Shown here piece by piece: positions 1-20,450 of a stretch of DNA of 64,000 nucleotides. Made by a program: the position numbers and the translations under genes. The stretch comes from Microcoleus sp. GTDB lineage: Bacteria > Cyanobacteriota > Cyanobacteriia > Cyanobacteriales > Microcoleaceae. The notes under the pieces were generated by a model. The model ran no database searches, was not told the DNA's origin, and saw only the letters and a list, made by a program, of their open reading frames with translations. How positions within the stretch are numbered: position 1 is the stretch's first letter; every line of letters starts with the position of its first letter. Where the stretch lies: NCBI GenBank assembly GCA_042408215.1, contig JAYFMW010000030.1, forward strand, positions 544,001 through 608,000, in the 5' to 3' direction.

Positions 1-1284
1 GACGTTTTGACAGTCTAAAATTTTGCGAGTAAGTTGGGATATCAACAGCGGTTGTCCCATTTTCTGAGTTTTGAGGTGGGCGGCGATCGCCTTTTCTACC
101 TGTTCCTCAATTTGTATCCTTTCCGCAGCAGATATCCGCAAATTTGAATTTAATTCAATGCGGAAAACACCATCAATTTCAATGGCATTCGCTGGCTTTA
201 AAATCGCATAAATTCCCGCAGCCCTTACCCGTTCAATCTCCTGTTTGATTTGGCTAACTTTATTGGTATCTTCAAAGTCTATCCCATCGACGAATACTTC
301 AATAACACCAAACTCCCGCAACTCGATCGGTTCACTATTACTGAGATTAAAACTAAGATCCTTGCGTAATGGTTCCCACTGCGTAGTATAACTTTGGTTT
401 AATTCTCCGGCTTTTCCCGGTATCGATGCTTGAACACTCACTTCTACCGTTTCACCGGTAAAATTGATGCTTTCCGTTGTGATAAATTGTTTTCTAGTAG
501 TGGTTTCCAGAACAATAGTTAATTCTGTCCCTCTGGGAATGTGAAGGGGCAATTTTTCCGCTGATACTGGCGTACTAGACAGACTGACTTTTCCTTTCGC
601 ATTATGAAAGTTTTCTCTAACCTTAACTTCCCTAACTCCCGGTAAACTCAACAGGGCATTTTCAATCGATGTTGTATTGGCATTACTAGCAGCAATCAAA
701 GCTTTTTTAGCCCGTTCCCGCAGTTGTTCGTCTGTCTCCCGCAGCTTACCAGTAAAGACAATTGCTTCGGGATTATCAACTGTTTTTACCCCCGGTATCG
801 GCTGGGGCATGATTTTTACAGTTCCGGCTTTTGTAACTTCTGTTTCTCCTGGCTGTATGGCTTGTACCCGCACTTTGATCGATGTTTCCGTGGGGGGAAT
901 AATTTGCGCTTCAATGGTTTTGTAAGCTTTTTTCGGTGATTCTTCCTTATCTTCTGTGGTGACTAATGTTCCGATGGGAATCGTGATATTTTCATCCAGT
1001 CCCAAATCGCGATCGAAAGTAACTATTCCGGTAGCATAATCTGGTTCGCCGCGTTTAATCCCTAAAATCGCGACTACTTTATCTAGATCCACTTCGGCGG
1101 CGGTATCCACATAAGCAGATAGGTAAACCCGCTGCATTTCTTCGTACAAAATCGCCATTTCATAAGCGAAGGATTCGTACAGGGTGCGAACCACACTTCC
1201 GGTTTGAAAGTCGCTGACGGTGGAGACGGTGCGATCGCGCATCGCCTCAAATATTTGGGTAAAATTCTTCTGTTCAAAAACCAT
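1..1284 (-). CDS. Baseplate J/gp47-like protein (partial, runs off left edge)
   Basis: Not in the ORF track. Manual translation from ATG 1284 gives MVFEQKNFTQIFEAMRDRTVSTVSDFQTGSVVRTLYESFAYEMAILYEEMQRVYLSAYVDTAAEVDLDKVVAILGIKRGEPDYATGIVTF, a typical baseplate-J N-terminus. It follows gp25. Confidence 0.85.
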   Translation of the reverse strand, partial: MVFEQKNFTQIFEAMRDRTVSTVSDFQTGSVVRTLYESFAYEMAILYEEMQRVYLSAYVDTAAEVDLDKVVAILGIKRGEPDYATGIVTFDRDLGLDENITIPIGTLVTTEDKEESPKKAYKTIEAQIIPPTETSIKVRVQAIQPGETEVTKAGTVKIMPQPIPGVKTVDNPEAIVFTGKLRETDEQLRERAKKALIAASNANTTSIENALLSLPGVREVKVRENFHNAKGKVSLSSTPVSAEKLPLHIPRGTELTIVLETTTRKQFITTESINFTGETVEVSVQASIPGKAGELNQSYTTQWEPLRKDLSFNLSNSEPIELREFGVIEVFVDGIDFEDTNKVSQIKQEIERVRAAGIYAILKPANAIEIDGVFRIELNSNLRISAAERIQIEEQVEKAIAAHLKTQKMGQPLLISQLTRKILDCQNV

Positions 1285-1295
1285 AATCAAACTTC

Positions 1296-1760
1296 TTAAT
1301 TTCCAACTATCGATATATTCAGAGTCAGCGGTGTATCTAAATCTACCACTTTTACGATGATTTTAGCTTTTAAAGTGTTAGGGTCTTTCAAGCGAGATGG
1401 CGGTTCAAAAACAATATCAATTATCTCATCTATTCTGCTTTCTTGATGCAAACATTCCCGGATATAAATATTGGCTAAACCTTGGGTTTTTATGTTGTTT
1501 AGTTCGCCCACCAACAGATATAAGCGCGAACCATAATCGGGATGTCCTAAACTAGCTAGTTCTCCTTTGCGGGTATAAAGTCGATTTAAAATCGCTTGAC
1601 TTAAATTATCTATTTTTGTTACCGTTGCTAAGTCGCGATTCTCGGCTTCTAAATCTACGTTGTTCCAATCGGCAATTCTGAGCAATTGACGATTCTGCGA
1701 TTCTAAATCTCTGGAGTAGAGAGTTAGTTTTAAATCGAACTTTTGTAAATCATCATCCAT
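1296..1760 (-). CDS. GPW/gp25-family baseplate wedge protein
   Basis: NLSQAILNRLYTRKGEL..HPDYGSRLYLLVGE..ESRI gp25 signature; lies between spike and baseplate J. Confidence 0.85.
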   Translation of the reverse strand: MDDDLQKFDLKLTLYSRDLESQNRQLLRIADWNNVDLEAENRDLATVTKIDNLSQAILNRLYTRKGELASLGHPDYGSRLYLLVGELNNIKTQGLANIYIRECLHQESRIDEIIDIVFEPPSRLKDPNTLKAKIIVKVVDLDTPLTLNISIVGN

Positions 1761-1766
1761 AATTTA

Positions 1767-2291
1767 TCACGATTTTTTGATTTGTTCAATCGTTGCTTGA
1801 GAAAACGTTACATCGGCTTGACTCAAGTCAACTTTTCCGGTGATTTTGACATTCCCAGCGATCGCTAAATTACCAGAAATTTGAATGGGTTTCTCATTCT
1901 GACTAGATAACTGAATGTCACCATCGGCAATTTTGATAATAGTACCACCAAAGCTAACTGTAATCGATCGCTCTGTCACCTCGATCGCTCTTTTGCCATC
2001 ATGCTCAACAGCAAAATTACCTTGAGCCACAATCCGATTCTTAGTCACAAAAGAAATGCCATCTTTTTGGTCTAAGCAAATCTTAGCATGACCGGATTTT
2101 TCGGGTTCTGGACAAGTTTCATCAGTCCCCTGACAAAAACCCTTAGCATGGGGTTTTTCTACCCGACTCGGCATATCGTTGGGACAGATAAAAATCTCTA
2201 AATATAACGGATCGGCATTGGGCTTTTCCTGAATCGTTTGACTCCCTGTATCATAAATATAATCGCTATTAGCACCTTTAATTCTGACCAT
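1767..2291 (-). CDS. Hypothetical tail/spike-associated beta-rich protein
   Basis: Likely start MVRIKGANSDY, because the longer ORF reads through a repeat. Beta-strand-rich C-terminus; inside the tail operon. Confidence 0.55.
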   Translation of the reverse strand: MVRIKGANSDYIYDTGSQTIQEKPNADPLYLEIFICPNDMPSRVEKPHAKGFCQGTDETCPEPEKSGHAKICLDQKDGISFVTKNRIVAQGNFAVEHDGKRAIEVTERSITVSFGGTIIKIADGDIQLSSQNEKPIQISGNLAIAGNVKITGKVDLSQADVTFSQATIEQIKKS

Positions 2292-2444
2292 CTTCTTAAT
2301 ATTTGGGGTGGAAAGTTGACTGAACAAACGAGCATAGGATAAAGGCAAAAAAACCCGGTTTCTTAGAAAAATAGTGGCTCTCCACCAGAGATATCCAGGC
2401 AGAAACCGGGTTTTTGGCCCCGCCTGCGTCCAGGAATGGAGCAA

Positions 2445-3296
2445 TTAACCGACTTGAGTATTTCTAGCTTTGGCTTGAATAGAATTAATCTTTTCAGTTG
2501 GGACCATCACCGGACAAGGCGCACCTAAATTCCCCATGTGAGTGTGCATACTGAGAATAATATCATCACCATCGCCCACTGCATTAGCTAATAATCGGCC
2601 GCCAACTTGGATCGAACCCGTCGCAGCATCACCAATTTTAATGCTACCCATACTTTTGACACTGACATTGTTACTAGCAGCGTCAATAGTAATGCCCCCA
2701 GCTTCGATTTTAATTTTGCAAGTACCATTATCAATGGTAATGTTGCCACCACTCAAAACTACTTTACATTGTTCATTTTTGAGCGTAGCATCTCCCCCCT
2801 CTAAAGTTAAATGACATTTCTCATTCGTCAGATCAATTTTATCATCATTAACCGTAATTACGTGCTTTTCATTTTTGCTAGTGACGGTAATTGATCCCTC
2901 TTTATCAATTTTTAAACTGCCCCCTTTTTCTCGATCGTGTTGCAGCAAAAATTCCTTTTCTTTATTGACTGGAGGTTGGTCTTCATCATTATACAACCGC
3001 CCAATAATTATCGGAGCATTAATATCGCCTCCAATAAAAGTCACCAAGACTAAATCTCCCACATTGGGAATATTCGCCAGTCCAATATGGGGCGTAACAG
3101 TTGGCACTTTCCGCAATTCAAAATCTTTGCCATCGGGCTGCTTTTTATTCTTCAATCTTACGGAACATTGGTAGTTATCTTTATCGCTATCCGAAGCATG
3201 GGGAAATATTGCCGTCACGATGCCAAGTTCGGTAGTATAAATTTTTTGTGCTTCTTGCTGGGCAACTTTTTGCATTACCCCAATAATTGAATCCAT
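2445..3296 (-). CDS. Baseplate assembly protein V / gp5-type spike
   Basis: OB-fold motif IPNVGDLVLVTFIGGDINAPIIIGRLY, beta-helix repeats and C-terminal HTH (HxH) metal-binding tip. Confidence 0.85.
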   Translation of the reverse strand: MDSIIGVMQKVAQQEAQKIYTTELGIVTAIFPHASDSDKDNYQCSVRLKNKKQPDGKDFELRKVPTVTPHIGLANIPNVGDLVLVTFIGGDINAPIIIGRLYNDEDQPPVNKEKEFLLQHDREKGGSLKIDKEGSITVTSKNEKHVITVNDDKIDLTNEKCHLTLEGGDATLKNEQCKVVLSGGNITIDNGTCKIKIEAGGITIDAASNNVSVKSMGSIKIGDAATGSIQVGGRLLANAVGDGDDIILSMHTHMGNLGAPCPVMVPTEKINSIQAKARNTQVG

Positions 3297-4265
3297 TATT
3301 TTTCCTCCCAATCAATCGTGGTTAAAAAACCCTGATGGCGGTTCAGGATATGCTTAATTCCAGTCACTTTAAAACTGCCATTTTGCTTGCTAATGGGCAT
3401 TTTTGTGATTTGGATACCATCGCCTAATTTGACATTGGCTGCACCCATCGCCACGATCTGTCCCCGTTGCTTTTGTTTCAGATGACTTAGCACCCCCCGT
3501 GCAATACTTTGAGCAACAGCTTGGCTGCGTGCGGTGGGATCGGCCAGTCGCAGAACGTTTCCACCCGCATCCCGCCGTGGCTTTCACTTCGTTTTTAGTC
3601 AACCAAGAATAAGCCTGTTCTCCTTGTCCTTGACTGGCTGGACTTTCTCCATAAATTTCTACTTTTTCGATGCCTTTTTGCGGTTGTTTTGAGCAGTATT
3701 TGAGCAAATCTTGACCGTAAGTAAAAGTATGAGTTACAGCAGGAGTGTACTGGGAAAAAATTGCCCGATCGCGATCGTTAGCATAAACATCAAAACCGCA
3801 TTGTCGAGCTAAGTTATACAAGCAATCGGCCGCATTTTGGCGATCGCCCACCGTATAAACCGAAAATTTAATCCCATTCTCAACTTTACCAATAGTCAAC
3901 TTCGCTTGTCTGAGAATATCTTTAACAATATCCCCCCCATGAGATTTTTCATAAACCCGATTCAATCGCAGCAAAGTTAAATCAGTAAAAGCACTAGCCG
4001 CCTCAATCTGAACGCGATCGATTTCCCAATCTACACAAGTCACTCTACCTGTAAATACTAAGGTAGTTTGTTTCTCGTAACCGATTTCTATAGATACCGG
4101 ATCTTTGGGAGAAACCTCCACATTTTTCGGGATACCTAACACAATCCGACAAGTGTTGACGGGAATATGCAAAGAAGCTTGCGATCGCAAATCGAGTAAC
4201 AGCGTTCCATCATTCGCCGTGTAGGTAGTTCTGCCGAGTTGGATTTTGTAACTAATCTTTAACAT
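3296..4265 (-). pseudogene. Late control D / baseplate hub protein, frameshifted near 3565
   Basis: MLKISYKIQLG..LVFTGRV..LARQCGFDVY continues in another frame as GGNVLRLADPTARS..VKLGDGIQ..FKVTGIKH..GFLTTIDWEEK*. Could be a real lesion or a sequencing indel. Confidence 0.75.
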
Positions 4266-4610
4266 CAAAATCACCCCTATACTGGTAAAGCATTTACAGC
4301 AGATTGCAGGTTTATGAAGTACATCCCAGAGCGAGCGATCCCCGTAGGGAAACGGCAATGCTCATTGGTGTAAACTTAACGTCAAACCCTGTCAGAAACG
4401 GCTGTTTGACTATTAAGCCTAGATCCCCCCTAGCCCCCCTTAAGAAGGGGGGGACAAGAGTCCGATCAAAGTCACCCCCTACTCCCCTTCTTAAGGGGGA
4501 TTTAGGGGGATCTAGACTCAGGTAAAAGCGATATTTATCAAGGGTTTCAGGCTTAAGTTGACACTAATGGGCGAAAGCCTTTGTCCCTACTTTAACATCA
4601 AAATCACCCC

Positions 4611-7600
4611 CTATACTGGTAAAGCATTTAACAGGCGATCGAAAGCTTCCTCCACATCTTCTAACCCAATATTTAGTTCACTTTTTAGCTGTTCCAGCCT
4701 CGCCCTTAAGTCTTTAAACAACTTATTAATTGCCTCCCGTAGGGCTTCAGTTTTCTTGACAACTTTCTGATACTGACCGTCGAGACTACTGGCGACAGCA
4801 CCCAGAAGATCGTGGAACAATTGAATAATTTTAGCGTGCAATTTATCCAATTCATCGACAATTTTTTGCGGATAAATTTCTGCTAATTGCTGCTGGATAT
4901 AGGGAAAAATTGACTCAATATTCATCACCAATTCCCCGGCATAATTCGATTCTATCAACACCCGGTTGAAGTGAACAATATTATTTCGATAGTCACCTTG
5001 AGATAACTTTTGCGCTTCAGGAGACAGTTGTATTCCCTGTAATTGGTCTGGTTTATAGAGGTTTTCATCCAACAGTAAGCGATTCAAATCCCGAATTACT
5101 GCTAGTTTTGTGCCGGGGGAGTTGACAGCAAGCAAAGACTGAGTATTCGCAGTCAATTGAGATTTGATATAAACAGTCAGACTGTCTTGAGATTCCCGCA
5201 GTTTTTCCAGAAACTTATCAAAATTGATAAAATCGCTGTCTTCAAAACTATTAATAATTCGGTGCGGGCTGAGGAATTTTACAGTCTCCCAAACATTGTT
5301 ATAGGTTCCTTGCAATGCCGTCACTACTTCGCTAACTAGACTATTAATTACAGCTTTCACTGCATTAATAGCATCGCGTATTTGAGCGCCTAAATTCGTG
5401 GCAATATTGCTCAAAATATCCGCTAATCTTCCTGGTGCTTCTGATAATTTTTGAATCACCAGTTTGATATCACCAAGCACGGAACGAGGTTGTGCTAGTA
5501 AATTATCTAGGGAATTGAGCAGGTTTTGGATCGGATTAATCAGTTGTCGATCCAATTCCTCTGGTAAGAATTGTTTGAAACTGGTAAGCATCTGCTCGGT
5601 ATTAAAGTTTTGAATCACTTCAATACTGTTGGGTAGATTTGGTTTGAGTCGATCGCCATCTGTTGTCAGCAATTGCTCCACTCGTTCATAAACCGACTGC
5701 GGATTGGTGGTGTTGATGCCATCATAAAGTCTTTGTAGGCGATCGCGCAAATCTTGATAATCCACCGCCAATTCTGCTTGGGGACTAAATTGAGCCAAAG
5801 TCAATTGCTTTGCTTCCCACAACACCTGCACTTCAACCATCACCGGAGCATATTCGCTGACAGCCGCTTGCAAACTGCTCAAATCAAAACCAACATTCGG
5901 GTTTTTCTGAATTTTCACATAATCTGTAATTGCCTGTTTCAATCCTCCTACAGATACCGTTAACTGCTCTGTACCGATCGCATTAACTCGCTCAACCACG
6001 CGATCGCGCAGAGATTCAATTTGCTGAATTTTGTCAGCAAAACTGTAGCTCAAAATATTTTCTAACGTCAGCCAAAAATCCGATTGCACCACATCTGCCA
6101 AACCCACACTCGCCATCAACTTATCAACTTGATTCAATCCCTCATTCACTTTTGCTACTAAAGCTTCTACCGGAATCTCATCCAAATTTTTAGTCACAAT
6201 TGCCAACTGCTCCTTCAGAAAATCAGTCATCCTATCTGGAGACAAAGATTCAATAATTTGCACCAGTTTTTGATAAAGCTCATCTAACTTATCAACTAAC
6301 TGCTGAGGATCGATCGCATCCAGCTTCCCAAGCATTTCATCATAAAAATCCTTAACTGGTTTCAGCAAAATCGAAGGTTTGTACTCATCAATTTTCGCTA
6401 CCACCGTATCTAGAGAAGGTTTGACAACTTTTTCAATTAAACTTCCCGGTTGAAAAGATTGAATTTTTGCATCAATTTTATCAACTTCTCCCTGAATCAA
6501 TCCTACCAAGTCTTCTATCGGCTCCAGAATTTCTGCAAAAGCCAAGTTCAATTCTGGATTGACAATCCCCGGTACATCCACCTCTTTAATAATTGTCGTC
6601 CCCACTTTCAGAGCCACTTTAGTTGGGGTAATAAGCTTAGCGGCATCAATCCCGCGCAACTTAGTTTCTAGATCGCCCGTTTTATCAACTACCGCCTTAA
6701 ATGCAGGTTTAAGTGATACTTTTCCTAAGTTATCAGTAATCAATTTAATCCCACTTTCTGCCTCTTTGAGACTGTGTTCTACCAGGGGATTATCTAAGAC
6801 TTGCGTAACTCGATCGAGTAATTGATTGATTTTATCCTCTAAAGCTTGCCTGTTAAGATTAGTTTCAATTTTGGTGTTTAATCCCCCGATACTGCTTCTT
6901 ACTTCCTCCGTTGTTTTGTGAATTTCCACCGAAATTTTATTAATATTATTGACCACAAATGTTGAGGCTTCGTTGCAACTCCGCTTTAGAGGTTTAACCA
7001 ACTCCATTGATTCCGCGCAAATTTTGTCAATGAAATCTTTAATTTCCCGGATTGCATCAGACAGAAAACTTTTGATTTGACTTAAAACGTCCTTACCTTT
7101 GTCGATCGCCTGAGCAATGGCTGTAGTCGCTTGTCTGGCCAATTCCTCCGCCTTGCTAATAGCAGTATCAATCAGTTGAGGGATTTTTTGGGTAAACTGT
7201 CGCAGTTTAGCCGTAATCTCTGCAACTTTTCGATCGATCGTGTCGATATAAACTTGAAGCTGATTAAATAGCGGCACTAAGGAAAGCGTATTTTCATCGC
7301 TGGCGGCTACTTGCGAAAGTTGAACTAAAGCAGTATTGAAACTCTCGATAGTAAAATTATTTAAATTAGCGATCGCCCTTTTAATTCTCGCTTCATTTTC
7401 CTCAATATTTCGAGAAAGTTTCCTAGTTTTTTGACGCAACTCTGCCATCGATAATTTGTCGAGTTTGTTGGGATTTTCTAACTGGTTCAGAATAGCTTGA
7501 TATTCACCAAAATATTCGCGACGCTGATGAATATTCGTTTCAATACTCTGAATCGCCTGGGAAGGAAGTTGTTGGCTTAAGGATAAAACTTGAGCTGTAA

Positions 7601-8174
7601 AAAGGCTGGTTAAACTAGCCGAACCCAGTTGGCTGAGTAATTCATCAGGATTAGATAGTTGATCGAGTAATTTCTGAAACACCTTTAACAAAGCATTAAA
7701 TGTCCGCACTGGCAACATTTGGGCCTTACTCAGGAATTCGTTAAACTCACTAAATATCGAGTTAGCAACAGGTGGCAAATCGCCAAGGCTGATACTGAAG
7801 CTCAAATCTTGAGTCAAACTGACAATTGTTGATTTAACTTCACCCACCAAATCTATATTTTTAAAACTATCAGCACTAGGAATTGGAATAGCTGCGGATA
7901 AACTTGCCAAATTCAGCGTAGTGAGTTGATGGAATTTAGTAGTTACTTCTGCTTTCAGTTCATTGGCTGACAAAGGAACTGATGAAATTGTCTTTTCTAT
8001 ATTGCTTAAATCTAATTTTGGCAGATTTATGCCCTTTTTGAATTCATCAAAATCTGGCAGTTGCGGTGTTACTTGGCCCAGAATAGTTTCCGGGTGACTA
8101 AGTTGATTTGTGAAATCAGCAAAGGTCGCTTCAGGGTTAATGTAATTTAAATCTTCTAAGAGAGAAAGTGCCAT
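4611..8174 (-). CDS. Large alpha-helical repeat protein (tape-measure-like) of the tail operon
   Basis: About 1187 aa with amphipathic helical repeats; embedded in the operon. Function inferred. Confidence 0.55.
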   Translation of the reverse strand: MALSLLEDLNYINPEATFADFTNQLSHPETILGQVTPQLPDFDEFKKGINLPKLDLSNIEKTISSVPLSANELKAEVTTKFHQLTTLNLASLSAAIPIPSADSFKNIDLVGEVKSTIVSLTQDLSFSISLGDLPPVANSIFSEFNEFLSKAQMLPVRTFNALLKVFQKLLDQLSNPDELLSQLGSASLTSLFTAQVLSLSQQLPSQAIQSIETNIHQRREYFGEYQAILNQLENPNKLDKLSMAELRQKTRKLSRNIEENEARIKRAIANLNNFTIESFNTALVQLSQVAASDENTLSLVPLFNQLQVYIDTIDRKVAEITAKLRQFTQKIPQLIDTAISKAEELARQATTAIAQAIDKGKDVLSQIKSFLSDAIREIKDFIDKICAESMELVKPLKRSCNEASTFVVNNINKISVEIHKTTEEVRSSIGGLNTKIETNLNRQALEDKINQLLDRVTQVLDNPLVEHSLKEAESGIKLITDNLGKVSLKPAFKAVVDKTGDLETKLRGIDAAKLITPTKVALKVGTTIIKEVDVPGIVNPELNLAFAEILEPIEDLVGLIQGEVDKIDAKIQSFQPGSLIEKVVKPSLDTVVAKIDEYKPSILLKPVKDFYDEMLGKLDAIDPQQLVDKLDELYQKLVQIIESLSPDRMTDFLKEQLAIVTKNLDEIPVEALVAKVNEGLNQVDKLMASVGLADVVQSDFWLTLENILSYSFADKIQQIESLRDRVVERVNAIGTEQLTVSVGGLKQAITDYVKIQKNPNVGFDLSSLQAAVSEYAPVMVEVQVLWEAKQLTLAQFSPQAELAVDYQDLRDRLQRLYDGINTTNPQSVYERVEQLLTTDGDRLKPNLPNSIEVIQNFNTEQMLTSFKQFLPEELDRQLINPIQNLLNSLDNLLAQPRSVLGDIKLVIQKLSEAPGRLADILSNIATNLGAQIRDAINAVKAVINSLVSEVVTALQGTYNNVWETVKFLSPHRIINSFEDSDFINFDKFLEKLRESQDSLTVYIKSQLTANTQSLLAVNSPGTKLAVIRDLNRLLLDENLYKPDQLQGIQLSPEAQKLSQGDYRNNIVHFNRVLIESNYAGELVMNIESIFPYIQQQLAEIYPQKIVDELDKLHAKIIQLFHDLLGAVASSLDGQYQKVVKKTEALREAINKLFKDLRARLEQLKSELNIGLEDVEEAFDRLLNALPV

Positions 8175-8298
8175 AAATTTAATTCCCAAGGTAAAGATAA
8201 AATGTTTTTTTTTGAGCAGATTTCCAGATTTTCGGGGAACAATTGAAATCTAACAGGTGGCTGGTATTTACTCCTAGGTCTACTTGAATATTTCAGCA

Positions 8299-8883
8299 CT
8301 AAATTTTAAAAAGTGCTTTCAATCCAGCAGTCGCTTGGTCAAAGTTTTTAGTGGCTTCTTTCACAGGTTCTAAACCTGTTTTCAAAGGTGCGATCGGGTT
8401 AGTAATTTCTGGCAAATTCCCCATTTGCAAAGCATCAGTCAGACTCACAACATCCATCAGTTTAGCAGCATCAAGCTTAATTTTTTGATCTAGATTAGAA
8501 ACTCCTGGGGATGCAATGGGTTTGGGAGGTTCAACATACTCTTGAACAATCAGTCGATAGCTAAATTCATCGGGCGATCGCGCAAGTTGCCACACTTCCA
8601 TTTTTTCTAATACAACTTGGCTAAAATAGGCTTGACCGACTATTTCCGCCACAAAGTCAACGGCTTTTCGCTGTTTGTGGATTTTTCGCAGAAAATCTAA
8701 ATCATCCCCTGCTTTTTGTCCGTAAAAAATTCCGCTAATTTCCAATTGTACCGAATCCCTTCCCAAATCTTGCACCAGATTTCCCAATTTACCAGGAATC
8801 CGATGAGTCACCCAATCCGCTTGTTCTAGGGTGACAATTTTATGCACTTTATTGAGTTCAACTTTTCCTAATTTGATGGCCAT
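8299..8883 (-). CDS. Tube initiator / DNA circularization N-terminal domain-like protein
   Basis: HRIPGKLGNLVQDLGRDSVQLEISG motif; position in the tail operon. Confidence 0.65.
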   Translation of the reverse strand: MAIKLGKVELNKVHKIVTLEQADWVTHRIPGKLGNLVQDLGRDSVQLEISGIFYGQKAGDDLDFLRKIHKQRKAVDFVAEIVGQAYFSQVVLEKMEVWQLARSPDEFSYRLIVQEYVEPPKPIASPGVSNLDQKIKLDAAKLMDVVSLTDALQMGNLPEITNPIAPLKTGLEPVKEATKNFDQATAGLKALFKI

Positions 8884-8885
8884 AA

Positions 8886-10046
8886 TTACTCCCCATAAAA
8901 TCGGCGATATTCTCGATTTATTTCTTGGGCGATCGCCTCTAAAATTGTCTCCATCTCTAGTTCGGGATGGCGATCGCTATGCAAAGATGCTTCTACCATA
9001 GCGTACCTATTTCTACTATCATCAGCTATTTTCGTCCTATTTTCCACCTCACTCTCCTGTGGTTCCAGCCATCCACCCTTGGCTGCTACAAATTCTTCGG
9101 AAATATCCGAAACATAACTCATTTTTTCCGATGTTTCCATCTGATAATCGGCTAATTCACTTTCGGAAAACAGGAGATTTTCTGAAGAATCATGTTTGAG
9201 GAAATCCGCCTCAATTATATGTTCTTGATTGGGCTGCGATACCAAAAAAGCCGACAAATCTTTTAAGCCTTTCATTCCCAGTGAATTTTGGGCAAAATCC
9301 CTCTGAATGTGCTCTGTTTGTTCTGTCGCCTTATCCAATTTTGGTAGATTGACATTCTGGGCAAATTGTGTTTTTATTTCCCTTGGTTCATCCACTACAG
9401 ACAAAACTTCTGAAGTTGGGTCTGAATCAGATTTATAGAAGGCTAATTCCTGAGATAAAACTCGATCGCCTCCCTCAGCATCAGATTCATCAAAACCTAA
9501 ATCCCTAGGATTAATCCTTGTATCTACCAGGGGAATTTCTGCCACAGAATCTGAATAATTCCCCAGCGCAGGATGATTTTTTTGCCCTTCTCCCGGCGCC
9601 ACAACTCTCTGGGATATCGCTTGAGGTTTTGACGAAGTATCCCCCAGAGATAAAGATGGCGATCGCCTTTTTGCATAACTAGATTGGCTATTAGCAGTAG
9701 GGATTGGTCGATCGGGATTAACCAAAGACTCGTATCTTCTCCAAGTTTCTAAGTAAGGATGAATTTTTGGGCGATCGTCCGATGTAGTTTCCTCCCCTAG
9801 ATTGATATTATTTAAACTTCCCAAATCAGGCGGAATAAACCCTGTAGTCAGCAATTTTTCCCAAACTTTAGATTCATTGATGACTACCTCGAATCGCTCA
9901 GTTTCCTGATACAAAAGCGCGATTTCCGCCCAATCTTCGCTACTCAAAAGATTGTCAGTCAACCATCCACTCGTATAGTTACACAATAAAGCTTGAAATT
10001 CATTGCTCAGATTGATGCCAAGATCTTTTAAACTTTCATCACCCAT
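8886..10046 (-). CDS. Acidic, largely disordered hypothetical protein of the tail operon
   Basis: The ORF-track start MCNDPL comes from a repeat; likely start is MGDESLK. Ends in a helical ILEAIAQEINREYRRFYGE. Confidence 0.55.
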   Translation of the reverse strand: MGDESLKDLGINLSNEFQALLCNYTSGWLTDNLLSSEDWAEIALLYQETERFEVVINESKVWEKLLTTGFIPPDLGSLNNINLGEETTSDDRPKIHPYLETWRRYESLVNPDRPIPTANSQSSYAKRRSPSLSLGDTSSKPQAISQRVVAPGEGQKNHPALGNYSDSVAEIPLVDTRINPRDLGFDESDAEGGDRVLSQELAFYKSDSDPTSEVLSVVDEPREIKTQFAQNVNLPKLDKATEQTEHIQRDFAQNSLGMKGLKDLSAFLVSQPNQEHIIEADFLKHDSSENLLFSESELADYQMETSEKMSYVSDISEEFVAAKGGWLEPQESEVENRTKIADDSRNRYAMVEASLHSDRHPELEMETILEAIAQEINREYRRFYGE

Positions 10047-10698
10047 CTTCACTTTGTCGCTCCTCTGTACTTCACTAAAACAGGACTTATACCAATTTAA
10101 TGGGTCGTTGCACATATCTCGATCCCCCTAAATCCCCCCCTCCCCTAGGGCGTGACTTTCAGACTACGCCTTAAGATCTTAGATCCCCCTACATCCCCCT
10201 TAAAAAGGGGGACTTCCAGACTCTTTCCCCCCCCTTATTAAGGGGGGCTGGGGCCGATCTTAATGGGTCGTTGCACATATCTCGATCGCCCTAGCTCCCC
10301 CCCAAGGGGGGAAGGGGGACTTTGAGAAGAATCTTGTCCCACACCCCCTACTCCCCTACTCCCCTTATTAAGGGGGGTTATACCAATTTAATGGGTCGTT
10401 GCACATATCTCGATCCCCCTAAATCCCCCTTAACAAGGGGGACTTTGAGAAGAATCTTGTCCCCCCCTTATTAAGGGGGGTTAGGGGGGATCGAAATTCT
10501 ATGCAGCCTCATAAAAAACAGGTATTAGGGGGGATCGAAATTCTATGCAGCCTCATAAAAAACAGGACTTACGCACGCGGAGCCAAAAACCCGGTTTCTA
10601 CATCAATATCTCTCGGCTCAAGCCACGATTTTCAAAGAAACCGGGTTTTTTTGGCCTTAGTCCTATAAAAAAAGCCATCCCCACATCGCCACATCCCC

Positions 10699-10861
10699 TC
10701 ATTTTTCCGAGCGATTTTCCTCATCTAACAGTTGTAGATACATTGACACCTGCGCCATTGTCATCGATCCCACTTGTTGAGGAGTCCAACCAAAAGCACG
10801 CGCTAATCGAAAGCTAGCTAACACCAGTGGCGAATTACTTAACTCGAAATCATTTTTTTTT
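10699..10861 (-). CDS. -1 frameshift extension of the tail chaperone (gpGT/gpE'-like)
   Basis: GAA AAA AAA ATG read in the -1 frame gives NDFELSNSPLVLASFRLARAFGWTPQQVGSMTMAQVSMYLQLLDEENRSEK*. Confidence 0.75.
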
Positions 10862-11180
10862 CCGTCAATCCGCTAATTTGCCGAATCTCACCGATCAGAA
10901 AGTTAACTAATCCTAGATTCATGCTTTTAACTTGTTCCAAGGAGAGACTAGGTTGTACTAGGGATTCTTTAATCATCAACAAAGGAATCAGGGCGGGATC
11001 GCTTTTCGCTGCTTTCATAATCAGCCCAAAAGCCCCAATCGTCAGCGGGCGCAATTGCACCACTAATTCCCGCTCTTTATTAGTGCTACTTGTGCTATGT
11101 TCCAATACCTCTGGGGGAATCGCGACATCAAAAATAATTTCTGAACCACCTAGCAGTTCTTCCGGCGTTAAAAATTGCAT
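10839..11180 (-). CDS. Tail assembly chaperone (gpG-like)
   Basis: 113 aa directly after the tube gene (VQLRPLTIG..SLEQVKSM..IRQISGL); ends at an A9 slippery run. Confidence 0.7.
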   Translation of the reverse strand: MQFLTPEELLGGSEIIFDVAIPPEVLEHSTSSTNKERELVVQLRPLTIGAFGLIMKAAKSDPALIPLLMIKESLVQPSLSLEQVKSMNLGLVNFLIGEIRQISGLTEKKMISS

Positions 11181-11384
11181 TTGAGGGTGAGGATTTAGGA
11201 AAAGTTTAAGTCAGGAATTACGCAGAAAAAGTCAAGGGTTCCGGTTTTTTTTACCGAGGTGATAGTTGTCACTAGATTAGTCCTGGACGCATGGGGACTC
11301 AGAAACCGGGTTTTTTACGAAAATATGCGATCGAGCCAGCACCCAAGGTAAAAAACCTGGTTTCTGTTGTTGATAGGTAAACTA

Positions 11385-11891
11385 TCAACCTGTCTCCTCA
11401 GAACTAATGCGTAAAGCTTTAAACGTCACTCCTTCCATCACAAAATCATCTTCAGGTAAAGTAAAACTCCAGCTTTCAAACTTGACCCCAAAGACTGTCA
11501 GTGTACTGCTGTTATCTGGTAAAGCTGGATTTTTCAGCGAGATGACAATATTAAAAGAAGGCTGAGGAATTGCGCCGGTAGGAGGAGGACTCGTCGCCCC
11601 ATCACCTAGGAGTAAGTGTAACAGGGCTCCATTGATGTGCGCGCGATCGATAAAACCCGAAACGCTAATATTACCCGGACGTAATTCTGTAGCAAAGCGT
11701 TTTCCTAATTCGTGATAGGGTCGTAATTCGTTTTCTACCTTAACCTGGACATTTTGTAAACGTCCCACTACGCTAGATAATTCGTACTTCCCGATCAAAG
11801 CTTCTGCTAATTTCCCCTCAACAGATTCTTGATTATCGACAGCTAAAACCAGCGAAGCATCCGAGCCGCGAAAAACATTGACATTAGGCAT
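11385..11891 (-). CDS. Tail tube protein
   Basis: 168 aa after the sheath; VGRLQNV..YHELG..PGNISVSG..FESWSF..EGVTFKA tube pattern. Confidence 0.8.
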   Translation of the reverse strand: MPNVNVFRGSDASLVLAVDNQESVEGKLAEALIGKYELSSVVGRLQNVQVKVENELRPYHELGKRFATELRPGNISVSGFIDRAHINGALLHLLLGDGATSPPPTGAIPQPSFNIVISLKNPALPDNSSTLTVFGVKFESWSFTLPEDDFVMEGVTFKALRISSEETG

Positions 11892-11958
11892 AATTTTCTC
11901 TTCTATTCAGGGCAAAAATTCTTGAAATTCCCGTTTTTGCGATCGATGTATCCTTGAT

Positions 11959-13026
11959 TTATCCTAGATACATTGTCACTTGAATAAAATCAATACTGAA
12001 CGTCGGTTGCAGAATCATTTTCACGGCAACTTCCCCAGCAATTTCTTGTCGGCGGGTAGCCGAAACTTCCAGTTGATAACTTACCAGAGATTCGCTGTCT
12101 ACCATACTGGTAAGAAACGCATCCAAGGTGGCTTTCATTGCTCCTCGCACGCGATCGTTATTCAGCTTGCCAATATAAGGATCGCAAGAGGAGCGCACTC
12201 CATAAATTGCATAGTCAACAATGCGGCGCGTGGTGATTTGATTCCAAGGACTATCGGCTGTGGTGATGCCTTTGACGATTCGATATCCACTGCGGGCTTC
12301 TACCGTCAAGACTTTTTTTTGCACCAGTTCTTTTAGCTGAGCATTGTTAAACTCAGTGGTGATCCCTTCAATACTCAGAGTTTTATTAGTGGGGCTAGCT
12401 TGCACGTTCAAAGAAGCAATTAAGCCAGCTATAGCAGCGGCTAAATAACCCCCAGGAAGTTTGTGTTGCTTGCCTTTAGCCGTTAACAAAATTCCGGGTG
12501 CTGTAAATATCAGCCGACCTCGATCGTCGCTGAGATTGTGGCCGCTAATTTGCTCTAAATCGTCTTTACCGTTTTTAAACCCACTACCAATAATTCCAAT
12601 TCTTTCGCGTTTAATTTCGGCCGTAGTGTTCAAATGTCCTTTGAGGGCATCTACCATCCCAGCTTGGTTAGCATCTTGCCCCGCTAGGACAACTATATTG
12701 ACAATTTTGTTTTCTAATAGTGCTAAACTTTCTTGATAAGCATCAGTGGTTGCTCCCGAAGTTCGCACTGCATAAACCGTCTGTCCGCCATTTTTATAAA
12801 TCAATTCCAAGGCGCGAACTAAAGTTAGTTCGTCTTGCTCTCCGCCTTGCCATTCATTGCTCTCACCAAAAATTTCTTTAGCTTCCGAAAGACTACTGAG
12901 TAATGTTACTTCATTCTCAGTACCCTGACTGGCAGTACCAACAATACCAATATTCCCTGTAGCAACTCCACTGGGCGCAATTAAGCCTTCGGGGCGCACT
13001 TCAACGTAAGTGCCAGGTAAAATCAT
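11959..13026 (-). CDS. Contractile tail sheath protein
   Basis: PGTYVE N-terminus, SPTNK, ITTRRIVDY..YIGKLN and LQPTFSIDFIQVT sheath motifs. The original first four codons (MAQT, 13466-13477) are cut off by an insertion. Confidence 0.9.
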   Translation of the reverse strand: MILPGTYVEVRPEGLIAPSGVATGNIGIVGTASQGTENEVTLLSSLSEAKEIFGESNEWQGGEQDELTLVRALELIYKNGGQTVYAVRTSGATTDAYQESLALLENKIVNIVVLAGQDANQAGMVDALKGHLNTTAEIKRERIGIIGSGFKNGKDDLEQISGHNLSDDRGRLIFTAPGILLTAKGKQHKLPGGYLAAAIAGLIASLNVQASPTNKTLSIEGITTEFNNAQLKELVQKKVLTVEARSGYRIVKGITTADSPWNQITTRRIVDYAIYGVRSSCDPYIGKLNNDRVRGAMKATLDAFLTSMVDSESLVSYQLEVSATRRQEIAGEVAVKMILQPTFSIDFIQVTMYLG

Positions 13027-13465
13027 AAAAACCTCACGGGAGCTTGGAAACCCAGTGGCTTGAGCCTAGGGAGGAAAAGCGATACGGGATGCTTTAGCGT
13101 CCCATGAATATTTTCAAAATCCATAGCTATCAAAAAATGGGTTGAAACCCGTCTTTCTAAGACGGTTTTATATTTCCCCTTTCGGGGTAGAGGGGTATGG
13201 TTGCCCCTCTAGGAAGATATGGTTGTCTCCATTTTTCCCTTTCGGGTAAAGTTCGCTTCGCCAATGTTTTAAGAGCTTTTTAAACCTGCAACACTGTTTC
13301 AGTGACCTTAAAACTGTTTAATTGCAGATGACAGAGCGGAAAACTAGCGTCGCATTCAAGGAGTGTCTTGACTCAAAAAACGTAGTCAGCTAAGACTTAG
13401 GCTGGTCAGAATGGCTTGTTTGATTACTCTTGCAAGCCCCGTCCCTTAAGGGCGGGGTTCCTGAC
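13027..13465 (-). mobile_element. Non-autonomous IS200/IS605 (IscB-type) element carrying a HEARO/omegaRNA-like RNA, no ORF
   Basis: Begins GTCAGGAACCCCGCCC..GGGGCTTG..GACCAGCCTAAG..CTACGTT..AAGACAC..GCTCTGTC..TTAAACAG..ATTGGCGAAG..CCCGAAAGGG. Ends with a hairpin followed by ATGA. Homologous to 26809-27195. Confidence 0.8.
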
Positions 13466-13616
13466 TGTTTGAGCCATAAAATATCTTTTGTATTTCTCAG
13501 AACTATTTATCTCACATGAATGTTATTTTGAATAAAAAATGTAATAAAACTTATTATTGTTCAAGTTGGGTGATGGTTTCAAACTGAATCTAAGAACTAA
13601 GCTACCGAAGATGATG

Positions 13617-13758
13617 TGATCTCAAATCCGGTAGCATCGGAATTAATATTACTCACAGCCAGGACACGGCAGTGCCGTGTCCCTACAATTAATCACGGTA
13701 GTCCAAGGACACTGCCGTGTCCTCTCTCTATATCATTCCGGTGCAACCGGAATTGATG
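13617..13758. repeat. MITE-like repeat (TIR TCAAATCCGGTAGCATCGGAAT / ATTCCGGTGCAACCGGAATTGA) with internal REP palindromes
   Basis: Inverted ends are visible. Related ends at 13862-14075, 19662/21650, 46030-46135 and 52090/53702. Confidence 0.65.
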
Positions 13759-13892
13759 TGAGTCATTGAGATTTTTTAGTAAAACTTAAAAAAGTCAAAA
13801 GTAAGAAAGCTTTCAGTAAAAACAAGGTTTTTTAGTCTCAACTTTTAACTTTTGACTGGTTATATCAATTCCGGTTGCACTCTTGGAGATGA

Positions 13893-14041
13893 TTGTTGAC
13901 GGTTGACGGTTGACGGTTGACGGTTGACAGTAGACAGTTAACAGTTAACAGTTAACAGTTAACAGTAGACAGTTAACAGTTAACAGTTAACAGTTAACAG
14001 TTAACAGTTAACAGTTAACAGTTAACAGTTAACAGTTAACT
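13893..14041. repeat. Heptamer STRR array (GTTGACG/GTTAACA) inside a MITE
   Basis: Directly visible 7-bp tandem repeats. Confidence 0.9.
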
Positions 14042-14111
14042 CAAATTTACTATTCCGATGCTAACGGATTTGATATTACACATTGAGTATTCAACTCAAA
14101 ACTCAAAACTT

Positions 14112-17104: not shown

Positions 17105-18444
17105 AATTGGGTTTAAAACCCCGTCCTTTTAGGACGGCTTTAATTGTAAACCTTTGTTACGATACCAGCCAATCTTGTGCTGAAATATCTAGCATAAGGC
17201 AGGAGGTAAGGCGATGCTAGTTTTTGAGTTCAAAGCTTACGGAAAATCCAGTCAGATTGCAGCAGTAAATGAAGCGATTCGTACAGCACAATTTGTCCGC
17301 AATAGCTGTTTACGCTATTGGATGGACAACCCAAAAATAGATAAGTACGATTTAAACAAATATTGTGCTGTGCTGGCCAAGAATTTCCCGTTTGCCGACG
17401 AACTTAACTCTCAAGCTAGACAAGCTAGCGCTGAACGAGCCTGGTCTGCTATCTCCCGATTTTACGAGAACTGCAAAAAGTCAATTCCAGGTAAAAAAGG
17501 ATATCCACAATTTCAGAAAGACTGTCGCTCAGTTGAGTATAAATCAACTGGATGGAAACTTGCGGATGACAGAAAATCAATCAAATTCACCGACAAAAAA
17601 GGGATTGGTAAACTCAAATTAAAGGGAACACGGGATTTGCATTTCTATCAAATCGCCCAAATCAAACGGGTAAGATTGGTAAAACGTGCAGACGGCGTGT
17701 ATGTCCAATTCTGTGTCGATGTCGATCGAAAGGAAAACACAGAGCCTTCTGGAAATACCATTGGATTAGACGTAGGATTGAAAGAATATTACACTGATTC
17801 CAACGGAGTGATGGTTGAAAATCCGAGATGCCTCCGAACAGGTGAAAAAGTTCTCAGACGTTCTCATCGTCGTGTATCTAGGAAGGTAAAAGGTTCAAAA
17901 AATAGAGGCAAAGCTAGACAGATTTTAGGAAAACGCCATCTCAAAATAAGTAGGCAACGCCAAGACCATGCTGTGAAATTAGCGCGGTGCGTAGTTCAGT
18001 CAAACGACTTGATAGCTTACGAAGATTTGAGAATTAAAAATCTGGTGAGAAATAATTGTCTGGCTAAGTCAATTAACGATGCTTCTTGGTATCATTTCCG
18101 TATCTGGATTGAATATTTCGGTCAAGTATTTGAAAGAGTTACGGTGGCGGTAAATCCGCAATACACTAGCCAAGAATGCTCTAGCTGCGGTGCAATTGTG
18201 AAGAAAACGCTATCCACTAGGACGCACGTTTGCAAGTGTGGATGCACTCTTGACAGGGATGAAAACGCAGCTAGAAATATCCTGAGTCGAGGATTGAGTA
18301 CGGTAGGGATACGGTCACTTTCGGACTAGATCCGAGCAACGCTTTGGGAGAATTGACCTCTACTCTGATTGGAGAAATCCTGTCCGCAGCACGTTAGCTC
18401 TACGAACAAAGAATCCCCACGCCTTGATAGCTGGGGAGTGTCAA
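17105..18444 (+). mobile_element. IS200/IS605-family element (tnpB only)
   Basis: Left hairpin GGGTTTAAAACCCCGTCCTTTTAGGACGGCTTT; right end AAGAATCCCCA..GGGGAGTGTCAA. Confidence 0.8.
17214..18329 (+). CDS. tnpB: RNA-guided endonuclease TnpB
   Basis: RuvC residues GLDVG / YEDL / DRDENAA and Zn finger CSSCG..CKCG. Confidence 0.93.
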   Translation: MLVFEFKAYGKSSQIAAVNEAIRTAQFVRNSCLRYWMDNPKIDKYDLNKYCAVLAKNFPFADELNSQARQASAERAWSAISRFYENCKKSIPGKKGYPQFQKDCRSVEYKSTGWKLADDRKSIKFTDKKGIGKLKLKGTRDLHFYQIAQIKRVRLVKRADGVYVQFCVDVDRKENTEPSGNTIGLDVGLKEYYTDSNGVMVENPRCLRTGEKVLRRSHRRVSRKVKGSKNRGKARQILGKRHLKISRQRQDHAVKLARCVVQSNDLIAYEDLRIKNLVRNNCLAKSINDASWYHFRIWIEYFGQVFERVTVAVNPQYTSQECSSCGAIVKKTLSTRTHVCKCGCTLDRDENAARNILSRGLSTVGIRSLSD

Positions 18445-19832: not shown

Positions 19833-20450
19833 ATGTCCGACAAATATGTCACACCAGCAGATGCGGCTAGAACTTTGGGAGTCAACGAACGAACCCTTAG
19901 ACGTTGGGAAGAGGACGGTAAAATCCCAGCGTTCCGAACACCAGGGGGCAAAAGACGTTACGACATCTCAGGATTTACAACTAAGTCTTTCCGCTCTACG
20001 ATCATCTACGCCCGCGTCTCAAGCCCCAAGCAAAGAGACGACTTACAGCGTCAATGTGAATATTTACAATCTAAATACCCTACAGCAGAAGTTGTCTCAG
20101 AAGTTGGCGGAGGACTCAATTACAAGCGGAAAAAGTTTCTCACCCTATTGGAACGAGTTATGTCAGGAGATGTCGAACGCATTGTTATCGCATACAAAGA
20201 CCGACTCGCCAGATTTGGGTTTGATTTCTTCGCTTGGCTCTGTGTCCAAAACTCTTGCGAAATCGTGGTTCTCAACCAAGTTGAATTATCTCCCGAACGC
20301 GAAATGGTTGAAGACATCCTTGCCATCCTCCATTGCTTCTCATCCAGATTGTATGGACTTAGAAAGTACAAGTCTGAAATCATTAAAGATCCGGATTTAC
20401 CCAGAGCCGAAACTCCATCAAATTTGGCAAAAATGGTTAGCAGCAACTAA
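19833..20450 (+). CDS. tnpA: IS607 serine-recombinase transposase
   Basis: MerR-like HTH (LGVNERTLRRWE..RTPGGKRRY), YARVSS, DRLARFG. Confidence 0.93.
   Translation: MSDKYVTPADAARTLGVNERTLRRWEEDGKIPAFRTPGGKRRYDISGFTTKSFRSTIIYARVSSPKQRDDLQRQCEYLQSKYPTAEVVSEVGGGLNYKRKKFLTLLERVMSGDVERIVIAYKDRLARFGFDFFAWLCVQNSCEIVVLNQVELSPEREMVEDILAILHCFSSRLYGLRKYKSEIIKDPDLPRAETPSNLAKMVSSN

Follow-up and report, generated by a model that had tools for sequence, protein, structure and literature searches.

R-type tailocins such as R-pyocin and diffocin are headless contractile tails with a simple baseplate, fibres, a collar and no ATPase that kill related bacteria through membrane puncture, and according to the accessible text of PMC10598620 the genes for a holin, an endolysin and a regulator lie beside their tail genes. 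The eCIS or PLTS (Afp, PVC, MAC, tCIS and Streptomyces CIS; PMC6899500, PMC4122934, PMC8213781) are headless too and have no lysis cassette. Markers of this superfamily are an Afp1/5 tube of the T4 gp19 type, an Afp15 AAA+ ATPase, an Afp16/DUF4255 terminator, and an Afp11 baseplate J that falls into lineage I or II. T6SS i-iii consist of an Hcp tube, a TssB/C sheath, ClpV and a membrane complex, and contain neither a gpJ-type J nor a terminator. The tail genes of phage Mu follow the order L-M-41-42-N-P-45-46-47-48-S. In this study, a tail operon at the left edge of the window (the whole 64,000-nucleotide stretch of Microcoleus DNA that was analysed) was compared with these systems; the source cyanobacterium is a mat former. 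The evidence supports a headless contractile tail that has long been resident in its host and belongs neither to a prophage nor to any catalogued eCIS subtype. The original prediction of a domesticated injection system of a less-studied type stands with regard to the missing head, the residence in the host and the position outside the catalogued eCIS subtypes, whereas the sequence kinship with P2 and Mu does not.

Gene content and extent of the operon

All eleven genes of the original prediction were found, co-oriented on the minus strand and in the predicted order. Positions 1..13477 had been taken as the operon, and here the genes and their order hold but the extent does not: the operon is about 19 kb long (19.3 kb), of which 6.3 kb lie left of the window edge. 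The left extension, for which coordinates are given in L001 (C30:525001-545000), adds a gpI-like wedge, a 171-aa protein, a fibre, a coiled-coil protein and a tail terminator, after which host genes come next. Upstream of the sheath, where only repeats and host genes had been predicted, repeats, one host gene and holA were found.

The tail sheath (11959..13026, minus strand; PF04984 and PF17482) is a short form of 355 aa. Its length had been pointed out as unusual; the short form is present here, but it is just one among relatives of about 350, 470 or 560 aa that differ by one internal insertion. With three lengths among relatives, the short sheath was rejected as a special trait. The tail tube (11385..11891, minus strand; 168 aa) is not of the gp19/Afp1-5 type. 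It matches PF18906 weakly (5e-4), Phi812_tail_tube is found on 10% of the members of its neighbour cluster in the Atlas, and PF06841 (gp19-type tube) had no match in the Microcoleus genome. The tail assembly chaperone (10699..11180, minus strand; 113 aa) has a predicted -1 frameshift with a G-T-type extension, and the in-frame A AAA AAA at 10854-10860 followed by a 51-codon -1 extension agrees with the frameshifting chaperone originally described. Slip site and extension peptide are alike in 29 of the 37 loci examined (30 with a looser filter; Terriglobia, whose extension peptide is different, were left out). At the other end, the tail terminator (L001 12717-13364, minus strand; 215 aa) was assigned from its model (pLDDT 83) by Foldseek and a VIA fold match, with a Z score of 13.6 and an rmsd of 2.6 over 122 aligned residues against lambda gpU; phage terminators ranked above CIS caps. 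A coiled-coil protein of 86 aa is encoded beside it (L001 13371-13631, minus strand). Searches of PDB with profiles of the tube, terminator, 171-aa protein and initiator alignments gave nothing relevant.

The baseplate genes comprise a gp27/gpD-like hub (3296..4265; PF05954/phrog_196), a gpV-type spike (2445..3296; PF04717, with TIGR01644 below cut-off), a gp25 sheath initiator (1296..1760; PF10934, phrog_975), a baseplate J of about 836 aa with a long C-terminal extension (1..1284 in the window, whole gene G000:C30:542774-545284; PF04865) and a gpI-like wedge partner of 678 aa (L001 15732-17768), assigned by position and by relatives that match phrog_1160 and phrog_6, all on the minus strand. 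The genes for spike, gp25, J and the gpI-like protein occur together in 35 of 38 loci. A small beta protein (1767..2291, minus strand) is likely a spike tip or extension; its slot is taken by a PAAR gene in 6 of 38 loci. Also on the minus strand are a conserved 171-aa protein (L001 15192-15707; phrog_5417, 9e-21), a collar fibre of 307 aa (L001 14233-15156; phrog_8469, phrog_1800) and a second-fibre stub of 43 codons (L001 14050-14181). The fibres have a common N-terminus, but their tips differ (collar, H-lectin, FGE-sulfatase, NHL, S74 chaperone). In this assembly only, an additional base near 3568-3570 breaks the hub frame. Because of this frameshift and the second-fibre stub, the present copy may be inactive.

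The acidic protein, the tube initiator and the helical protein

The tube initiator (8299..8883, minus strand) contains a Mu gpN N-terminal or gpU-like domain (PF07157, 26.2 bits, over cut-off), and one distant protein with this domain carries fused OmpA and PG-binding domains. Next to it lies the gene for an acidic low-complexity protein (8886..10046, minus strand) with a conserved C-terminal helix, whose motif is present in 29 aligned rows. The acidic protein varies from 330 to 816 aa across loci (CV 21%), its gene sits in the slot of Mu gp42, P2 T and the HF1 TMP, and it is likely a tape measure or plug. When the hub trimer was modelled together with the last 32 residues of the acidic protein, the predicted complex scored 0.00, a result that was counted neither way.

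An all-helical amphipathic protein of 1187 aa is encoded at 4611..8174 on the minus strand, after the initiator rather than the chaperone, just as the original prediction had it for this operon. Its length (CV 4%) and prolines are fixed and it has no TM segment. The model (pLDDT 74, pTM 0.40) retrieved only generic helical matches from PDB and BFVD with Foldseek (TM about 0.03-0.10), and an Atlas search gave scores under 0.9. Judged from this model, the protein may have no known fold, a provisional assessment since the whole chain and not single domains was folded; PF26039 is annotated on its homologues. The gene is movable: in 4 of 38 loci, all from Bacteroidota and possibly going back to a single event, it is fused on behind the initiator, and in another 4 of 38 it stands behind the terminator. 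The gene after it gave sub-cut-off M23 peptidase matches in 4 of 8 copies scanned; this M23-like gene travels with the helical gene in 4 loci and is absent from every cyanobacterial locus read.

The helical protein matches tape-measure PHROGs (best 4e-14), which counts against the preferred assignment and means that the two roles may be reversed, with the helical protein as a tape measure setting a roughly fixed tail length and the acidic protein as plug or cargo. This arrangement, which is somewhat unlikely in our estimate, would also suit the all-helical model and the C-terminal helix of the acidic protein, which we take to resemble that of eCIS. Against it, the acidic gene keeps its place after the chaperone in the very loci where the helical gene is fused or moved, and the helical protein is fixed in length and prolines. 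Fusion to the initiator would moreover set its N-terminus at the baseplate, whereas tape measures usually have the opposite orientation.

Distribution and residence in the host

Sheath relatives were found at 237 places in GTDB genomes, with identities of 46-98% among the 80 genome loci listed. The 37 loci read at length keep the Mu-like order and come from Cyanobacteria, Chloroflexota, Bacteroidota, Acidobacteriota and others, so that the operon is not specific to cyanobacteria but belongs to a family spread over several phyla. Genes left of the window were read for head genes, whose presence would point to a prophage, and none was there; no linked terminase, portal, capsid or integrase was found at the Microcoleus locus, nor did its operon yield genes for a head, a terminase, an ATPase or lysis. 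A genome-wide profile search covering PF03237 (terminase) and PF04860 (portal), in which positive controls matched, found neither in the Microcoleus genome. In none of 37 carrier genomes does a PF03237 terminase lie within 400 kb of the operon on its contig; 15 of them have one elsewhere. The host HIP1 sites originally noted are present: 1-13477 contains 12 of them and the complete 19.3-kb operon 17, where a second-order Markov model expects 0.44; their density is 0.88/kb in the operon and 0.69/kb in the genome. The operon genes are under purifying selection, with dN/dS against Kamptonema of 0.07-0.34 for 15 of 16 genes and 0.49 for the acidic gene. Contigs from two RNA runs cover sheath and tube, although such contigs cannot show transcription.

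These data bear on the reading of the operon as a decaying prophage remnant without present function. The two lesions in this assembly (hub frameshift and second-fibre stub) would fit decay, as would the rarity of the tube, which searches found in 4 of 79 genomes of the genus and in 3 of 401 of the phylum, one complete congener genome with scars of the operon only, and the presence of the operon on four IMG/VR contigs. In these four contigs the operon begins 0.3-2.6 kb from the fetched end, leaving no room to judge heads. However, the hub is uninterrupted in 5 of 5 runs with contigs over the frameshift site, the same headless order recurs in several phyla, and the terminator has been relocated to the 3' end. 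Purifying selection and host-level HIP1 argue in the same direction, as do the cultured phages, among which no close sheath (best about 30%) and no tube match was found. A remnant is therefore highly improbable, and for the family largely refuted already.

Proposed function and comparison with known systems

Taking as established the parts list, the cross-phylum conservation, the purifying selection, the host-like HIP1 density and the failure to find genes for a head, an ATPase or lysis, we tentatively propose from sequence that the host-resident operon builds a free contractile syringe, which would bind neighbouring bacteria through its variable fibres and puncture their envelope. In such a particle, the hub trimer and spike would nucleate the baseplate with gp25, J and the gpI-like protein, the chaperone pair would load the acidic protein as tape measure, and the initiator ring would allow tube growth, followed by the sheath and capping by the terminator. 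Because no lysis cassette is linked, release would occur upon cell lysis by the host or by outside means. Fibre binding would trigger a single contraction, and the helical protein, attached or fused to the initiator, would be delivered into the envelope of the target, accompanied in some lineages by the partner that weakly matches a peptidoglycan peptidase. The M23-like gene and the OmpA/PG-binding initiator fusion are hints that the target may be bacterial. No convincing TM segment that could serve as membrane anchor was found in the operon proteins of this genome, which counts for a free particle.

Alternatively, the system could be cytoplasmic or membrane-attached and, under stress, lyse the producing cell or a segment of its filament in the manner of Streptomyces CIS and Anabaena tCIS, with the helical protein or the long J and gpI extensions as membrane tether. 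We consider this unlikely, although the missing lysis cassette, the amphipathic helical protein with its fixed prolines and length, and the many carriers that are filamentous by their record names would agree with it, and intracellular CISs are described in cyanobacteria, Streptomyces and Chloroflexota in the accessible parts of the literature. Those described systems are eCIS-type, which this family is not; the operon has no TM anchor gene, and the diverse, duplicated fibre tips suggest an outward choice of target. Less probable still is a free particle directed against eukaryotes, whether grazers or hosts, with protein cargo as in Afp/PVC. Lectin-type fibre tips, a hub and spike nearest to eCIS, and an insert in the Leptolyngbya PCC 7375 locus with a PAD and ubiquitin-hydrolase protein and DUF4123 speak for such a target, but neither the operon nor its surroundings hold a conserved effector family, the present copy has no cargo-like gene except the helical protein, and an Afp15-type ATPase is missing.

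A free bacterial-targeting syringe would be a candidate trait for competition within benthic mats of cyanobacteria and, as our own suggestion, a candidate source of some unexplained rhapidosome tubes (the term as used in the accessible part of PMC8910223). The family would add a lineage to injection-machine evolution together with a new large component. Direct testing is possible in named carriers (Herpetosiphon aurantiacus DSM 785, Leptolyngbya PCC 7375, Kamptonema UHCC 0994 and Microcoleus anatoxicus PTRS2). In Herpetosiphon and the present Microcoleus, no gp19 tube and one sheath match each were found, so that tail-like particles there should be attributable.

In its conservation the family resembles a secretion system, but eCIStem, the one catalogue whose locus list was compared, has no entry at the family locus for three carrier genomes that it screened. 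The dbeCIS screen used Afp/PVC/MAC gene seeds and required an Afp1/5-type tube, and thus should not see this family. In the openly accessible literature, no description of the family was found. As predicted, the parts are not those of the Afp/PVC list, since there is no gp19 tube and no ATPase, and the operon falls outside eCIS. PF06841 matches occur in 23 of 37 carrier genomes, some of them inside two operons listed by eCIStem and none at the family tube. Walker-A ORFs lie near 5 of 38 loci only (by motif scan, not profile), with no conserved Afp15-type AAA+ ATPase, and Pvc16_N (Afp16/DUF4255) did not match the terminator, its genome search giving no positive control match. The sheath phylogeny that had been suggested as a check placed the family in its own clade: in a FastTree analysis, 22 family rows formed one clade (0.91) with MTATph1 as sister (0.96), while 12 sheaths from loci of the gp19 type, which carry no eCIS subtype assignment, lay apart from it. 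Other supports were modest (J 0.28, with one eCIS row in the tree; hub 0.81; spike 0.76). The sole eCIS J scored 5e-6 with the J profile versus 1e-13 to 1e-38 for phage J proteins, and the hub and spike profiles scored best on eCIS proteins. A split hub and spike also exists in eCIS subtypes IIa-c (PMC6899500) and does not discriminate.

Of the predicted P2/Mu/R-pyocin parts list, the Mu gene order was recovered and the sequence kinship was not. Mu has the same order, chaperone slot and DNA_circ_N initiator followed by a helical part, but its sheath and tube show no significant similarity, and only J (7e-4), the hub (6e-8) and gpN (0.02-0.04) respond to the family profiles. P2 FI, FII and J and Mu L and M gave no significant score, whereas HF1-, Herelleviridae- and other prophage-type tails do score. 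The best outside scores were phi812 (1e-9 in PDB) and Moorella phage MTATph1 (7e-27) for the sheath, halovirus HF1 (3e-38) and phi812 ORF62 (2.5e-8) for J, and Lactobacillus 521B (1e-13) for gp25. Sheath, tube and J thus appear nearest to phi812/HF1-type tails, and kinship with P2 and Mu would be one of order only.

Unlike Mu, the family has no head or transposase. It differs from the Herelleviridae (phi812, 521B), HF1 and MTATph1 tails by a sheath identity under about 30%, by being headless and by the affinity of hub and spike. R-type tailocins share the headless plan, but their linked holin, endolysin and SOS-type regulator have no counterpart: none was found at the Microcoleus locus, and a scan of 97 proteins from flanks or inserts showed none to be conserved, glycosidase and PG-binding genes being scattered there in single loci. 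The R-pyocin sheath reaches only 2e-6 with the family profile, R-type tailocins are genus-bound whereas the family crosses phyla, and the large J and gpI extensions are peculiar to the latter. With eCIS/PLTS it shares a predicted terminator cap and a patchy spread across phyla, differing in its one tube gene, the missing LysM match, the terminator at the 3' end and the extra 1.2-kaa helical gene. Compared with T6SS i-iii, it has one phage-type sheath, a J and a terminator, and neither ATPase nor TM protein. The family may therefore represent a phage-tail domestication independent of T6SS, eCIS and genus-bound tailocins, a tentative reading in which trunk and wedge of the phi812/HF1 type would be joined to an eCIS-like hub and spike in a cross-phylum machine. 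Such a machine would need no ATPase or lysis genes, would use a disordered tape measure, and would deliver or anchor through the helical protein on the tube initiator.

Gene content and extent of the operon

The original prediction of a tail operon with eleven listed genes was borne out: all of them lie on the minus strand, from window position 13026 to the left edge, and family matches back the sheath, tube, initiator, hub, spike, gp25 and baseplate J. The operon passes the left edge of the window (C30:544001-608000 of the host genome) and covers C30:537717-557026. Inspection of the genes left of the window, proposed earlier as a check, revealed tail parts followed by a host cluster. With this DNA the J gene is whole, at about 836 aa, and is joined by a gpI-like gene (678 aa), a 171-aa gene, a collar fibre (307 aa), a stub of a second fibre (43 codons), a coiled-coil protein (86 aa) and a terminator gene (215 aa), and past the operon end lies a convergent host GGDEF/CheC/receiver cluster. 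The model of the 215-aa protein has a tail terminator fold (pLDDT 83), with Foldseek matches to T5 p142, the E217 gateway, T4 gp15 and the PVC cap; its VIA Z was 13.7-12.0 among the top six, and 13.6 for lambda gpU. With this protein as terminator the operon encodes a complete tail, the gene for the cap having moved to the end.

Sheath PF04984 has a single match in the host genome. Neither terminase PF03237 nor portal PF04860 was found there, the positive controls being matched in both searches, and profiles made from the family detected no second copy of any operon part elsewhere in this genome.

Between operon genes, the intergenic stretches at window 4320-4560, 10120-10660 and 13060-14050 contain palindromic repeats of high copy number and 7-base tandem repeats, and the summed contig depth at these repeats is 10-200x higher. 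Two further stretches hold genes of transposon type by sequence: window 17214-18329 a putative TnpB-like ORF, and 19833-21600 a putative resolvase opposite a 584-aa putative TnpB-like ORF.

Residence in the host and state of this copy

Among the 80 of 237 places listed, the nearest named relatives are Microcoleus, with a sheath identity of 98%. The host HIP1 sites noted earlier in the operon were confirmed, at a density equal to or above that of the genome (17 sites vs 0.44 expected). Of the genomes searched, 4 of 79 from the genus and 3 of 401 from the phylum carry the tube, the host genome being included in these counts, and all 14 cyanobacterial tubes fall in one clade (96/86) of a 37-row tree. 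In two of five congeners without the operon, a gap of 1.0-1.3 kb separates the two genes that flank it elsewhere, and the gaps gave no protein-level match. One of these two congeners, with a complete genome (G106, L152:1391-2359), carries three single-copy scars of 143, 57 and 50 bases, 83-90% identical, that derive from the terminator and gpI-like genes, so the operon was lost from this site at least once. Against Kamptonema, dN/dS is 0.07-0.34 in 15 of 16 genes, with the acidic gene at 0.49. In the comparison with the nearest strain it is 1.1-1.25 for three genes, of which two rest on very few changes and the third is the acidic gene.

The hub gene has one additional base near window 3568-3570, which is missing from the nearest named strain and from all five sequencing runs with contigs over the site (X1, X2, X5, X6 and X13, where X1 and X2 are one sample; the listed pieces of X3 leave a gap there). 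Either an assembly error or a private mutation accounts for it. In the nearest strain the second fibre, a stub here, is 644 aa long, and run X13 contains about 1.4 kb of additional DNA at this site. Two RNA runs, X14 and X15, have contigs over the sheath and tube genes, though these are no proof of transcription.

Spread of the family and its two unusual proteins

At E<=0.001, 2493 proteins match the sheath, with identities of 53-100% among the top 120, and a GTDB scan confirmed 237 places, 80 of them listed. The listed places are named as Cyanobacteria, Chloroflexota, Bacteroidota, Acidobacteriota, Gemmatimonadota, Myxococcota, Desulfobacterota, Leptospirales and Gammaproteobacteria; most carriers are MAGs, and single taxon labels may be wrong. 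Extension of 37 of the 80 listed loci, picked for long contigs, gave 38 loci with the window; the part profiles derive from these loci themselves, some of which are cut by contig ends or the 29-kb reach. Sheath, tube and chaperone were each found in all 38, the hub in 36, spike, gp25, J, gpI-like and helical genes in 35 each, the 171-aa gene and fibre in 33 each, the terminator in 29 and the coiled-coil gene in 27. The Adonisia and Gemmatimonadota loci end after the initiator within the 29-kb reach. Both the slippery site and the associated -1 peptide are conserved in 29 of 37 loci.

The flanks are chiefly unrelated host genes, and a scan of 97 flanking or inserted proteins gave no match to any family of head, terminase or holin proteins. 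Fifteen of the 37 carrier genomes have terminase matches, but in none of the 37 does one lie on the same contig less than 400 kb from the operon. A dead prophage is highly improbable. In IMG/VR, four close contigs are the same operon and 19 are distant. In a phage collection nothing matched the tube, and sheath identity is <=30% among the 20 of 37 matches listed.

One Bacteroidales MAG carries the operon twice in tandem, about 22 kb apart (L069 and L065, G086:C2:196553-220002), and one IMG/VR contig (L128) five consecutive sheath-like ORFs. Gammaproteobacterial loci (L086/L123, L082-L085) form a divergent branch in which a conserved 371-aa gene precedes the sheath and a second initiator-domain gene is fused to OmpA and PG-binding domains; neither helical nor terminator profile matched in this branch.

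The acidic protein (window 8886..10046) comes after the chaperone in each of the 37 loci from which it was taken, and this position is the tape-measure slot of Mu, P2 and HF1. It is Pro/Ser-rich, 330 to 816 aa long, with a conserved C-terminal helix. The helical protein (1187 aa, window 4611..8174) has 1124-1317 aa in 26 unfused copies, with 23 conserved prolines and amphipathic periodicity, and no hydrophobic stretch exceeded the threshold in 27 of 30 copies. In four of the 38 loci it forms the rear part of a fusion with the initiator, in four it has been relocated behind the terminator, and in nine a second large gene accompanies it, four of eight scanned copies of the latter having sub-cut-off M23 matches. 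Mu gpN, a protein that is injected into the host, similarly combines an initiator domain with a longer tail. The helical protein is probably a delivered or baseplate-bound element; that it is the tape measure is the less likely reading.

In Leptolyngbya PCC 7375 (L042:13953-20583, L107:7549-17611) decapeptide repeats and CarboxypepD-like domains lengthen the initiator to 984 aa. Helical gene and hub are separated there by an insert of about 11 kb, a possible cargo cassette, which encodes PG-binding and DUF4123 proteins and one protein that combines PAD and ubiquitin-hydrolase domains.

Kinship, predicted function and catalogued systems

In the PDB, the sheath profile is closest to phi812 (1e-9), followed by R-pyocin (2e-6), with Afp3 at 0.03 and the Anabaena CIS sheath at 0.64. 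J is closest to phi812 ORF62 and HF1 (3e-38), and the tube is similar to a viral cluster in which 10% of the members carry Phi812_tail_tube. The hub is closest to eCIS VgrG-type chains (4e-10 to 1e-7), with Mu gp44 behind at 1e-5, and hub and spike profiles score highest on gp19-type loci from the same genomes. The P2/Mu/R-pyocin parts list held in part: the order agrees with Mu from sheath to fibre, but P2 FI, FII and J and Mu L and M score nothing. FastTree trees of sheath (0.91), hub (0.81), spike (0.76) and J (0.28) each recover the family as a single clade that contains no eCIS row; in the sheath phylogeny, a check proposed earlier, its sister is phage MTATph1. The profile scores thus suggest a mosaic origin, which the trees do not prove.

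The leading, tentative prediction for the family is a single-use, free, tailocin-like syringe aimed at neighbouring bacteria, whose particles would be released through lysis that the operon itself does not encode. A device that lyses its own cell from inside is a less likely alternative, and an injector aimed at eukaryotes is unlikely.

The screen of Chen 2019, in the portions available, requires afp11 and a non-phage afp1/5 and counts Afp15 and Afp16 as core (PMC6899500). An eCIS requires a gp19-type tube, whereas the family tube has no gp19 match. AAA+ ATPase is always present in PLTS clusters according to the available text of Sarris 2014 (PMC4122934), whereas Walker-A ORFs lie near just 5 of 38 family loci. 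H. aurantiacus was among the genomes that Chen 2019 screened, and DSM 785 scored 0 in the eCIStem supplements available (PMC8213781). In the same supplements, PCC 7375 has entries solely at 7.64-7.67 Mb, its family locus being at 0.36 Mb. The entry on M. bouillonii scaffold Ga0081470_101 is at 2.08-2.11 Mb (among 30 of 36 Moorea places listed), with the family locus at 3.68 Mb. Since 23 of the 37 carriers (G061-G097) hold gp19-type tubes elsewhere, the family often coexists with ordinary eCIS. It is not described in the accessible parts of PMC12998442, PhageTAILor, PMC11566945, PMC12210884, PMC10598620, PMC3482391, PMC9230969, PMC8910223 or bioRxiv 2023.04.12.536658, and general tools like PhageTAILor may pick up loci of this kind but leave them undescribed. 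As far as the searchable literature shows, an uncatalogued cross-phylum lineage is well supported. The family would act like an eCIS or R-tailocin, yet it falls outside the defining gene tests of both.
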